Sequence record: NC_049954.1
DNA from: Escherichia phage 2G7b
DNA: 47,142 bases
Strand: one strand, 5' to 3'
Shown in pieces: positions 29,342 through 30,829 of the stretch; the first letter of the stretch is position 1; every line of letters starts with the position of its first letter. Both the position numbers and the translations under genes were made by a program. The notes under the pieces are model-generated. The model made no database searches. It was not told the DNA's origin and saw nothing but the letters and a program-made list of their open reading frames with translations.

Positions 29342-29568
29342 TTTCTTTCCTCTGTTATGCCATCACCCGCGCTCACCTGGACAGTATGCAGCGGAGACTG
29401 AAGCGCCGCAATGCAGGCTTGCCGTGTTGTGAGGTAAGGAGATTTTGGCTTGGTTGGATCTTTACGTGTTGCCTGTAGGCGGCCTGTTCGTATCCAGTTG
29501 GTGGCGGTTGGTCTGGATATCTTAAGAAACTGACAGGCCTCATCGAGTGTGAGGCTGTATGATTCCAT
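29197..29568 (-). CDS. xis: excisionase-like DNA-binding protein (Xis/AlpA-type)
   Basis: [33 protein letters not shown].. ; the reading frame runs 145 nt into int, so the true 3' end is uncertain. Confidence 0.55.
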
Positions 29569-29818
29569 GGTTACCTCTGCTTTTTGAACGCATGTCACGT
29601 AACTTCTTAATGTGTTCTGCCGTTTCGATCTCTTCTGCTATCCGATCTGCATCAGCTTTATTCACAGGTTCAAAGTCATGATTAAAGCGGAACATGCTGG
29701 CGATACATGTTCTGCCTTTTCGGATGTAGTGAACTTTGTTGTGGGTAGAACGCAGGATTTTGCAGGGAGTGCCGTGGTGGTCGACGTACCAGGTGTTAGG
29801 AAAAATGATTCTGAACAT
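29540..29818 (-). CDS. hypothetical protein
   Basis: 92-aa ORF MFRIIFPNTWYVDHHGTPCKILRSTHNKVHYIRKG..; no family recognised. Confidence 0.4.
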   Translation of the reverse strand: MFRIIFPNTWYVDHHGTPCKILRSTHNKVHYIRKGRTCIASMFRFNHDFEPVNKADADRIAEEIETAEHIKKLRDMRSKSRGNHGIIQPHTR

Positions 29819-29865
29819 TTTTACACCTCAGTTGGACGATGTTGAAATTTGCTGCTTTGAGGCCA

Positions 29866-30084
29866 TCACAGTCCCCATTGTTTGTTCTTAAGTTCGATCT
29901 CCTCCTGGCAACTCGCACAAGTCCGACAACCCTGAACAGCCAGGCGTCTTCGCTCATCTATCGGATCGCCACACTCACAACAATGAGTTGCGGATACAGT
30001 CTGGTAGTTCAGACGACGCATTTTTATTGCTGTATTGCGCTGTAATTCTTCGATTTCTGATGCTGAATCAATGATGTCTGCCAT
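29866..30084 (-). CDS. TraR/DksA-family C4 zinc-finger protein
   Basis: 72-aa ORF with CxxC..(17)..CxxC (CCECGDPID..CRTCASC). Confidence 0.65.
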   Translation of the reverse strand: MADIIDSASEIEELQRNTAIKMRRLNYQTVSATHCCECGDPIDERRRLAVQGCRTCASCQEEIELKNKQWGL

Positions 30085-30182
30085 CTTTCATTAATCCCTG
30101 AATTGTTGGTTAATACGCTTGAGGGTAAATGCGAATAATAAAAAAGGAGCCTGTAGCTCCCTGATGATTTTGCTTTTCATGT

Positions 30183-30398
30183 TCACCGTTCCTTAAAGAC
30201 GCCGTTCAACATGCCGATCGCCAGGCTTAAATGAGTCGGTGTGAATCCCATCAGCGTTACCGTTTCGCGGTGCTTCTTTAGTACGCTACGGCAAATGTCA
30301 TCGACGTTTTTATCCGGAAAATGCTGTCTGGCTTTTTTGATTTCAGAATTAGCCTGACGGGCAATGCTGCGAAGGGCGTTTTCTTGCTGAGGTGTCAT
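30183..30398 (-). CDS. hypothetical protein
   Basis: Likely start at MTPQQENALRSIARQANSEIKK.. inside tool ORF 30183..30464. Confidence 0.4.
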   Translation of the reverse strand: MTPQQENALRSIARQANSEIKKARQHFPDKNVDDICRSVLKKHRETVTLMGFTPTHLSLAIGMLNGVFKER

Positions 30399-30474
30399 TG
30401 AACAAGCCCCATGTCGGCAAGCATAAGCACACAGAATATGAAGCCCGCTGCCAGAAAAATGCATTCAGTGGTTG

Positions 30475-30666
30475 TCATACCTGGTCTCTCTCATCTGCTT
30501 CTGCTTTCGCCACCATCATTTCCAGCTTTTGTGAAAGGGATGCGGCTAACGTGTGAAATTCTTCGTCTGTTTCTACTGGTATTGGCACAAACCTGACTCC
30601 AATTTGAGCGAGGCTATGTGCCATCTCGATACTCGTTCTTAACTCAACGGGAGATGCTTTGTGCAT
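30475..30666 (-). CDS. hypothetical protein
   Basis: 63-aa [40 protein letters not shown].. Confidence 0.4.
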   Translation of the reverse strand: MHKASPVELRTSIEMAHSLAQIGVRFVPIPVETDEEFHTLAASLSQKLEMMVAKAEADERDQV

Positions 30667-30829
30667 ACAGCCCCCCCCGTTTATTATTTATCTCCTCAGC
30701 CAGCCGCTGTGCTTTCAGGGGATTTCGGATTACAGAAAGGCCGGGAAATACCCAGCCTCGCTTTGTAACGGAGTAGACGAAAGTGATTGCGCCTACCCGG
30801 ATATTATCGTGAGGATGCGTCATCGCCAT
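30644..30829 (-). CDS. hypothetical protein
   Basis: 61-aa [29 protein letters not shown].. overlapping neighbours by a few codons. Confidence 0.35.

Follow-up and report, generated by a model that had tools for sequence, protein, structure and literature searches.

[quoted passage not shown] Judged by sequence, four of its genes are orthologues of lambda orf60a, orf63, orf61 and orf73, and they are carried by a Nesevirus of the ev243/Turner kind whose int-xis module is of P22/DLP12 type. The block lies on the strand read from pL, after N, kil, gam and bet; the upstream genes encode N_peptide, SieB, Kil, Gam, Bet and Exo, all on the strand of the block except SieB. A preliminary description of this DNA had reported five small ORFs of 61-93 aa between xis and exo on the pL strand, and the ORF list shows them on the minus strand just as described (Table 1); it had also correctly read the segment as a non-essential early-left slot, the counterpart of the lambda ea/orf region. 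On the downstream side, int (28178..29341) overlaps xis by 145 nt and is adjoined by an ompT moron. The mechanical xis ORF spans 29197..29598 (133 aa) and its phrog_2907 excisionase match covers residues 11-126; the likely start is the ATG at 29568, which shows anti-SD pairing of -7.1 kcal/mol versus -1.8 for the GTG at 29598. No tRNA gene was found within the window.

Table 1. [quoted passage not shown]
Feature	Coordinates	Strand	Evidence
exo (lambda exonuclease), upstream boundary	30820..31500	-	YqaJ 2.6e-29; phrog_149 exonuclease 4.5e-66; pN/pS 0.10
Five leftward ORFs (61, 63, 93, 72 and 92 aa)	30644..30829; 30475..30666; 30183..30464; 29866..30084; 29540..29818	-	ORF list
orf60a homologue (DUF1317), from its probable start	30644..30823	-	DUF1317 3.6e-34, profile position 1 at residue 3; pN/pS of the 61-aa ORF 0.27
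t1, stable hairpin then UUUCUGUA, within orf60a	30739..30757	-	MFE -19.6 kcal/mol, z = -3.9
orf63 homologue (DUF1382), intact, 63 aa	30475..30666	-	DUF1382 3e-31; anti-SD pairing -10.6 kcal/mol; pN/pS 0.22
orf61 homologue, intact long form, 71 aa from M23 (probable start)	30183..30398	-	phrog_303 1.3e-42; pN/pS 0.09 (71 codons)
Conserved 31-codon ORF (VNMKSKIIRELQAPFLLFAFTLKRINQQFRD) between orf61 and orf73	30091..30186	-	GTG overlaps orf61 stop; internal ATG 30180
t2, terminator-like hairpin and U-run, inside the 31-codon ORF	30144..30162	-	terminator scan; MFE -10.2 kcal/mol, z = -3.7
orf73 homologue, TraR-family C4 zinc finger, 72 aa	29866..30084	-	zf-dskA_traR; phrog_54 3.6e-26; pN/pS 0.16
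DUF4222 (RgdR-family) protein, 92 aa	29540..29818	-	PF13973 1.9e-19; phrog_285 3.2e-38; anti-SD -6.9 kcal/mol; pN/pS 0.29
xis (excisionase, HTH_17 domain), from its likely start, downstream boundary	29197..29568	-	phrog_2907 4.4e-46; HTH_17 1.5e-8

All five leftward ORFs, which cover ~88% of the 1290 bases from 29540 to 30829, are real genes by their Shine-Dalgarno sites, pN/pS ratios and conserved synteny. Pooled pairwise comparison with 5-7 related phage loci gave pN/pS values from 0.09 (the C-terminal 71 codons of the 93-aa ORF) to 0.29, whereas plus-strand control ORFs overlapping the block gave 0.40-2.13, and the cores of all five show a clear synonymous excess relative to these antisense controls. 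Pairing with the anti-Shine-Dalgarno sequence is -4.7 to -10.6 kcal/mol at the preferred starts; the background of minus-strand ATGs averages -1.9. Every one of the five proteins matches a PHROG family, and NCBIfam holds a model for one of them, with no match for the other four. Ribosome profiling in lambda found ORFs of the conserved block to be expressed, according to a review (PMC8614690). The preliminary description had proposed that the ORFs would fall if they lacked ribosome-binding sites and conservation in related phages; Shine-Dalgarno sites are present and the ORFs are conserved in such phages, so all five stand. It had overlooked a sixth conserved ORF, of 31 codons.

The lambda exo-xis region has the same position, strand and gene order, with orf60a-orf63-orf61-orf73 directly after exo, and is 96% identical in DNA to the window between exo and a point close to the orf73 end; the hairpins t1 and t2 and the 31-codon ORF are common to both. 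Homology to lambda stops at ~29900 in the window, inside the last orf73 codons, and lambda ea22, ea8.5 and orf55 are replaced by one DUF4222 gene and the P22/DLP12-type xis-int. The conserved block of the literature comprises five genes including ea22 after orf73 (PMC8614690), and we found no Ea22-like ORF in 29540-30829. Much closer are the Nesevirus phages Turner, PhiR34_1 and ev243 and argU-site (DLP12-site) E. coli prophages, for example that of strain M8, which are 98.5-99.1% identical from int to exo. They carry the identical gene set, including the 92-aa form of the DUF4222 protein, and differ only by point changes and annotation choices; ev243 likewise has ompT beside int, and its record annotates orf63 as 37 aa, yet the full ORF aligns without gaps. 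The orf60a-orf73 block occurs in 198 phage records and is nearly invariant (95-99% identical) across hundreds of phages. Of 5426 complete E. coli genomes, 3677, or about two thirds, contain similar DNA.

Three of the four proteins for which the preliminary description had seen no recognisable family lie far above their Pfam cut-offs (DUF4222, DUF1382 and DUF1317, E-values in Table 1). The DUF1317 match of the orf60a homologue scores 116.8 bits against a cut-off of 22.3, and the protein is 88% identical to lambda Orf60a, with a C-terminal tail that is unlike lambda's because of a 2-nt indel; a PDB sequence search gave no match for the protein. From its first ATG the ORF extends to 30829 (61 aa), and the start is probably the second ATG at 30823, which shows anti-SD pairing of -7.7 kcal/mol and overlaps the exo stop as ATGA. 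Within the gene lies the hairpin t1, which we take to correspond to lambda tL3. Its sequence equals the published t1 of Bloch et al. 2014 (PMC4195576) except for one tail base. The orf63 homologue, whose start overlaps the end of orf60a by 23 nt, matches DUF1382 with 107.8 bits over profile positions 1-60 of 60, is 95% identical to lambda Orf63, and finds PDB entry 8dsb (the lambda Orf63 sequence) at 2e-33.

The window displays orf61 in its intact form, matching both frames of the frameshifted lambda copy, which is truncated because of one extra A in an A-run (DNA alignment; PMC8614690). Frameshifts occur in lambda and in many database variants. Programmed frameshifting at this run was considered and set aside: its heptamer does not form a canonical slippery site, and ordinary indels would explain the look of the variants. 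The true start is probably M23 at 30398 (71 aa), as in RefSeq and PGAP: the first 22 codons of the 93-aa ORF, which begins at 30464, carry 1 synonymous versus 11 non-synonymous differences (pN/pS 3.3), and its upstream start has no Shine-Dalgarno site (-3.8 kcal/mol). An AlphaFold2 model of Orf61 is a three-helix bundle (pLDDT 88) with no significant Foldseek match in the PDB (best E 1.6), and the homeodomain-like fold proposed for phi24B Orf61 (PMC8614690) was absent from its 40 Foldseek matches. The ZapA name given in many NCBI records was not confirmed: Pfam ZapA scores 14.3 bits where the cut-off is 23.8 (E 0.051), NCBIfam gave no hit for the protein, and no ZapA structure was among the fold matches. 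An ankyrin-repeat likeness from the PDB sequence search, with the motif GFTPTHLSLAIGMLNG, was sub-threshold, had no stretch that passed alone, and was taken as chance.

As the preliminary description had proposed, one protein is a TraR/DksA-type C4 zinc finger: the 72-aa orf73 homologue scores 37.3 bits against Pfam PF01258 (zf-dskA_traR), above the gathering score of 24.9. Its match to NCBIfam TIGR02419 (C4_traR_proteo) covers the whole profile with an E-value of 2e-14 but scores 53.9 bits, less than the curated cut-off of 59.7; PGAP nevertheless names the protein as TraR/DksA family. The hallmarks listed for the TraR/Orf73 family (PMC8614690) are all present, namely the N-terminal acidic DxxDxA (D3, D6, A8), the zinc site CxxC-17-CxxC (C35/C38/C56/C59) and ExxR(L/K) (E44, R47, L48). 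The protein is 87% identical to lambda Orf73, with which it shares two extra cysteines and from which it differs in the C-terminal 10 residues, and it aligns over its full length with the TraR chains of 5w1s and 6n57 (RNAP complexes). TraR of the F plasmid has the same D3-x-x-D6-x-A8 and CxxC-17-CxxC arrangement and a similar length of ~72 aa, but is only ~25-30% similar, and the window protein has ExxRL rather than ExxRK.

Lambda Orf73 binds RNAP without need of ppGpp, inhibits rRNA and r-protein promoters while barely activating transcription, and makes the host grow more slowly and give 3-4 times as much phage; D3 and D6 are required (PMC9239242). Given 87% identity and the full set of hallmark residues, we infer that the window protein would bind host RNA polymerase as TraR does, in the secondary channel and free of ppGpp. 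By extension from lambda it would inhibit rRNA and ribosomal-protein promoters, slow the host and increase yield 3-4 fold. The sign of the effect is disputed: Orf73 was pro-lysogenic in Wegrzyn assays (PMC8614690) versus yield-increasing in the Gourse work (PMC9239242). Transcription of the block within minutes of infection or induction, as shown for lambda and phi24B, would be expected here by orthology. The orf60a, orf63 and orf61 genes have been described as pro-lytic (PMC8614690, PMC6213356), and their homologues here may likewise favour lytic growth, both in the lysis-lysogeny balance and in the kinetics of induction, as deletion phenotypes suggest.

The remaining gene of the block encodes a protein with a PF13973 match of 69.4 bits (gathering score 27) over profile positions 1-53 of 53. 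The family alignment places the DUF4222 core at ~79 aa, the last 13 residues being a junction-specific tail, and the 3' end of the gene overlaps the xis start by 29 nt. RgdR, which carries DUF4222, is an activator of LEE1 and a repressor of motility, and its DNA binding is non-specific (PMC10877973, PMC3378721). RgdR (ECs_1581), from the EHEC O157 island OI-51/prophage Sp7, resembles the window protein in its Pfam domain, in being small and basic, and in residing in a prophage-type element; the two are 24% identical (E 4e-6). The RGD tripeptide at RgdR residues 20-22, reported as important for T3SS activation (PMC3378721), is not conserved, the aligned residues being P7-N8-T9. The settings also differ: the window gene belongs to a lambdoid pL operon, and that for RgdR precedes a primase gene within Sp7, an untypable prophage; P4 ancestry was noted for OI-51 by the RgdR authors.

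An AlphaFold2 model of the DUF4222 protein (pLDDT 78) shows a small beta-barrel at residues 10-51 followed by a helix at 54-81. Foldseek against the PDB gave no match at E <= 1e-3, and neither did a PDB sequence search return one; the weak best fold matches were barrels of the SH3/Tudor/KOW/PWWP type, among which binding to nucleic acid or RNAP is common. Tentatively, and by analogy with the distantly related RgdR, the protein would most likely act as a small regulatory cofactor associated with nucleic acid or polymerase. A fixed link between DUF4222 and TraR was also considered, since the two genes are neighbours here and in a Klebsiella phage and have a single gene between them in a Salmonella phage. 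It was rejected as a rule: in HK639, phiP27 and Sakai Sp7 no TraR domain was found in the scanned genes flanking DUF4222, and none is annotated nearby.

The sixth ORF, between orf61 and orf73, is a CDS in the annotation of Lambda_2E9, and its peptide is identical in 8 of 9 sequences. Of its six variable columns, four are synonymous third positions, one is the start codon (GTG or ATG) and one holds a non-synonymous change; its internal ATG shows anti-SD pairing of -8.0 kcal/mol. A review mentions a 31-aa peptide from lambda ribosome profiling in the exo-xis block, and the length and location given there match, so that the ORF is probably 'orf2313' of Liu et al. 2013 (PMC8614690). The t2 hairpin that it contains is identical to the published t2 of lambda and phi24B, and a published predicted promoter, p1, overlaps t2 (PMC4195576). 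One speculative possibility, to which we give little credence, is that the ORF is a translated gate, which would control the distal pL operon in an attenuator-like and previously undescribed way. As the ORF start overlaps the orf61 stop, ribosomes leaving orf61 would move on into the ORF and melt the t2 hairpin, and translation of the ORF would then set the level of transcription that arrives at orf73, the DUF4222 gene, xis and int.

Other readings of the block were weighed against this assignment to the lambda exo-xis region. It is unlikely that the DUF4222 gene is a lysogenic-conversion regulator, expressed from the prophage to tune virulence, motility or surface genes of the host rather than phage development. 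RgdR, the only characterised DUF4222 protein, is encoded on a prophage-like element and does act on the LEE1 promoter, on motility and on Congo-red binding, and the ompT moron beside int fits such a role; yet the window gene sits directly between orf73 and xis in the pL operon, which is repressed in a lysogen, and we found no promoter-like site upstream of it. The distance from RgdR, the absent RGD motif and the different type of element in which RgdR stands before a primase gene likewise speak against a shared function of this kind. We regard it as highly improbable that some of the ORFs are not genes but decayed or chance frames that survive through conserved DNA, even with the skewed substitutions and missing Shine-Dalgarno site at the front of the 93-aa ORF, the frameshifts of orf61 in lambda and many database variants, and the last 13 residues of the 92-aa DUF4222 protein outside its family core. 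The synonymous excess of all five cores over antisense controls, the Shine-Dalgarno sites, the many members of the protein families and the lambda ribosome profiling all argue that these are genes.

The preliminary description had also suggested host-takeover or anti-defence functions for such a slot. Takeover has experimental support for the lambda orthologue of the zinc-finger protein (PMC9239242); anti-defence found no support. That the block is an anti-defence cassette, in which at least one small protein mainly neutralises host restriction-modification or abortive infection, is very unlikely. The early non-essential left arm is a frequent phage location for genes of this kind, the operon of the block also holds ral and gam in lambda, and no molecular target is known for Orf60a, Orf61 or the DUF4222 protein. 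Against this, none of the proteins has a family, fold or literature link to any anti-defence protein, the phenotypes published for deletion and over-expression come from ordinary K-12 strains and bear on growth of the host, on transcription and replication initiation, and on the balance between lysis and lysogeny, and the near invariance of the block is unlike fast-diversifying anti-defence loci. PADLOC defence-system models gave no convincing match to the block proteins; one hit of the Orf73 homologue to a restriction-enzyme model (13.7 bits, E 0.007) was set aside as a chance-level zinc-finger resemblance.

The exo-xis block is already known and has a dedicated literature, and its value as a discovery is small because few accessory modules of the lambdoid phages of E. 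coli are as widespread or as well catalogued; its carriers include Shiga-toxin phages. The gain for annotation is that lambda orthologues provide names for four proteins and a known regulator family a name for the fifth, and that the window displays the intact form of orf61 that is missing from the lambda reference. Of modest further interest are the role of DUF4222 proteins in the phage early operon and the regulatory role that the 31-codon ORF enclosing t2 may have.

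All five small minus-strand ORFs proposed in the preliminary description are present in the ORF listing, and it was right to put them on the pL strand with xis and exo on either side: exo, bet, gam, kil and an N-type antiterminator, along with a DUF2528 gene, lie upstream on the same strand, and excisionase and integrase lie downstream. SieB is on the opposite strand. A cI-like repressor, cro, cII and O are farther along. By anti-SD pairing, ATG 29568 is the most likely start of the excisionase, whose gene shares 145 nt with that of the integrase and 29 nt with the DUF4222 gene. 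PGAP calls the corresponding xis of E. coli M8 an incomplete pseudogene, and the window ORF is full length by PHROG profile.

Features of the exo-xis block and other loci, with pooled pairwise pN/pS and anti-SD pairing energies (kcal/mol)
Feature	Coordinates	Strand	Description	pN/pS	Anti-SD
orf60a	30644..30829	-	61 aa	0.27	-7.7 (second ATG)
orf63	30475..30666	-	63 aa	0.22	-10.6
orf61	30183..30464	-	93 aa from mechanical start	0.09 (C-terminal 71 codons)	-4.7 (M23)
A6 run	30336..30341	-	within orf61
31-codon ORF	30091..30186	-	between orf61 and orf73
orf73	29866..30084	-	72 aa	0.16	-4.9
DUF4222 gene	29540..29818	-	92 aa	0.29	-6.9
exo	30820..31500	-	upstream of block; comparison gene	0.10
xis	29197..29568	-	excisionase, downstream of block
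Integrase	28178..29341		P22/DLP12 type, downstream of block
Hairpin t1	30757..30739	-	inside orf60a; -19.6 kcal/mol, z -3.9
Hairpin t2 with U-run	30162..30144	-	inside 31-codon ORF; -10.2 kcal/mol, z -3.7
Four overlapping control ORFs		+		0.40-2.13
163-aa gene	35481..35972	-	hydrophobic
285-aa gene	36010..36867	-
Omptin gene	26742..27695	-	OmpT type

The possibility that some of these ORFs are not genes is excluded for their cores, which have SD sites and pN/pS values of 0.09-0.29 against 0.40-2.13 in antisense controls. These values pool pairwise comparisons of each ORF with 5-7 related phage loci and are descriptive because the pairs are not independent, but the contrast to controls is clear; anti-SD pairing over all minus-strand ATGs averages -1.9 kcal/mol and reaches -4 or lower in only 17%. 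SD sites and low pN/pS thus answer the proposal that missing ribosome-binding sites and conservation would count against the block. Only the first 22 codons of the 93-aa orf61 frame, and perhaps the DUF4222 tail, fit a non-coding status. As those 22 codons carry 11 non-synonymous versus 1 synonymous differences and have no SD site by anti-SD pairing, orf61 likely starts at M23 (30398, 71 aa), the start used by RefSeq and PGAP. For orf60a, 30823 is the most likely start: the ATG there shares an ATGA with the exo stop, and the Pfam profile aligns from residue 3 onward.

[quoted passage not shown] Direct DNA alignment gives 96% identity over a stretch that starts in exo and almost reaches the end of orf73; homology ends at about 29900, within the last codons of orf73, beyond which lambda has ea22, ea8.5 and orf55 whereas the window has one DUF4222 gene running into xis. 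Orf60a, Orf63 and Orf73 are 88%, 95% and 87% identical to their lambda counterparts. The TraR/DksA-type zinc finger of the preliminary description was borne out (zf-dskA_traR, 37.3 bits against a cut-off of 24.9), but its statement that the other proteins have no recognisable family was wrong: DUF1317 (Orf60a, 3.6e-34), DUF1382 (Orf63, 3e-31) and DUF4222 (PF13973, 1.9e-19) match Pfam, and all five proteins match PHROG families. In the PDB, Orf63 finds entry 8dsb (2e-33), which agrees with lambda Orf63 in sequence.

In lambda, Orf73 binds the RNAP of E. coli and, with no need for ppGpp, inhibits the promoters of rRNA and r-protein genes both in vitro and in vivo. It also slows the growth of the host and increases phage yield 3-4 fold, and yield falls as far with a D3A/D6A double substitution as with deletion of the gene (PMC9239242). 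In alignments, window Orf73 keeps D3, D6, A8, CxxC-17-CxxC and ExxRL, has two extra cysteines typical of Orf73, and differs from the lambda protein chiefly in its last ten residues. Deletions of orf60a, orf61 and orf63 favour lysogeny and delay induction (PMC8614690, PMC6213356), Orf63 is a two-helix protein with an NMR structure, reported to be dimeric, and ribosome profiling in lambda reportedly confirms the ORFs of the conserved block (review, PMC8614690). The preliminary description was sound as observation and partly right as interpretation. Its suggestion of anti-defence genes finds no support in families, folds or literature. The block is moreover near-invariant, which argues against an arms-race locus.

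A second functional alternative, that the DUF4222 gene is a lysogenic-conversion regulator, is possible by analogy with RgdR (ECs_1581) of EHEC O157, the only characterised member of the family, which activates LEE1, represses motility and binds DNA non-specifically (PMC10877973, PMC3378721). Against it, the gene lies within the repressed pL operon, and a promoter-like site upstream of it was not found. The window protein shares just 24% identity with RgdR (E 4e-6), with the RGD motif aligning to P-N-T, and in the family alignment it adds a 13-residue tail to a core of about 79 aa. Its AF2 model (pLDDT 78) contains a small beta-barrel of five strands at residues 10-51 and then a long helix (54-81). 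Foldseek returned no match at E <= 1e-3, and the best weak matches were SH3/Tudor/PWWP/KOW-type barrels, e.g. TnsB, Spt5 KOW, RapA and the UvrD C-terminal domain. On these grounds, a small nucleic-acid- or polymerase-associated cofactor is no more than a reasonable guess. Phage records with this gene number 55, among them phage 21, SfI, HK639, phiP27 and phages of Klebsiella, Enterobacter and Salmonella, and it lies near int in every context inspected. In two of these contexts, in Klebsiella and Salmonella phages, a TraR gene lies beside it or one gene away, but none was evident adjacent to it in HK639 or phiP27.

By sequence comparison, the window encodes Orf61 in its intact form. Lambda has A7 in place of A6, and the extra A breaks the frame in two, giving the annotated 61-aa orf61 plus a further 60-codon ORF; a review had already described lambda Orf61 as truncated by comparison with phi24B and 933W (PMC8614690). 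Given this truncation and the many further frameshifted variants around the A-run in the protein database, orf61 seems prone to inactivation. In database searches the family was found only in E. coli phages. The 71-aa AF2 model is a confident three-helix bundle (pLDDT 88) without a significant Foldseek match in PDB (best E 1.6). The published "homeodomain-like" reading was not confirmed; nor was the NCBI name "ZapA" (Pfam ZapA, 14.3 bits against a cut-off of 23.8).

A sixth ORF, of 31 codons, had been overlooked. Its start overlaps the orf61 stop (GTGA in the window, ATGA in lambda), and a further ATG inside the ORF follows a strong SD site (-8.0 kcal/mol). Of 9 sequences compared, 8 encode the same peptide; variation is limited to six columns, namely the start codon (GTG/ATG), four third positions with synonymous changes and a single non-synonymous change. 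One phage record annotates this ORF, and its product is probably a 31-aa peptide of matching length and location that has been reported from lambda ribosome profiling (review, PMC8614690). Hairpins t1 and t2 are identical or nearly so to terminators already predicted in lambda and phi24B, in a publication that also predicts a promoter ahead of orf73 (PMC4195576). It is possible, though unlikely, that the 31-codon ORF enclosing t2 gates how far transcription continues into the genes beyond it (orf73, the DUF4222 gene, xis and int).

Elsewhere in the window, which has no tRNA gene, the 163-aa and 285-aa genes take the position of lambda rexB and rexA, flanked by N and the cI-like repressor; without Pfam or PADLOC matches, they are a candidate prophage-expressed exclusion pair of no known family. 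The omptin protease is a phage-carried moron, as its gene directly adjoins the attachment site and int, as does ompT in the Nesevirus ev243.

Over the 1.7 kb from int to exo, the window shares 99.1% identity with Escherichia phage Turner and 98.5% with ev243. Public records, including ev243 (3676..3789) and two others (L009 and L012), annotate orf63 as 37 aa; in ev243 the 63-codon ORF aligns gap-free over all 192 nt, so by alignment the annotation is inconsistent and the gene not truncated. The orf60a-orf73 block is found in 198 phage records, many of them Stx phages, mostly at 95-99% identity. Of 5426 complete E. coli genomes, 3677 have a match to the 1290-bp segment, and in 1731 of these the match spans 80% or more of it; the PGAP labels are DUF4222, TraR-DksA, hypothetical, DUF1382 and DUF1317. 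The exo-xis block is a very common module, already known.
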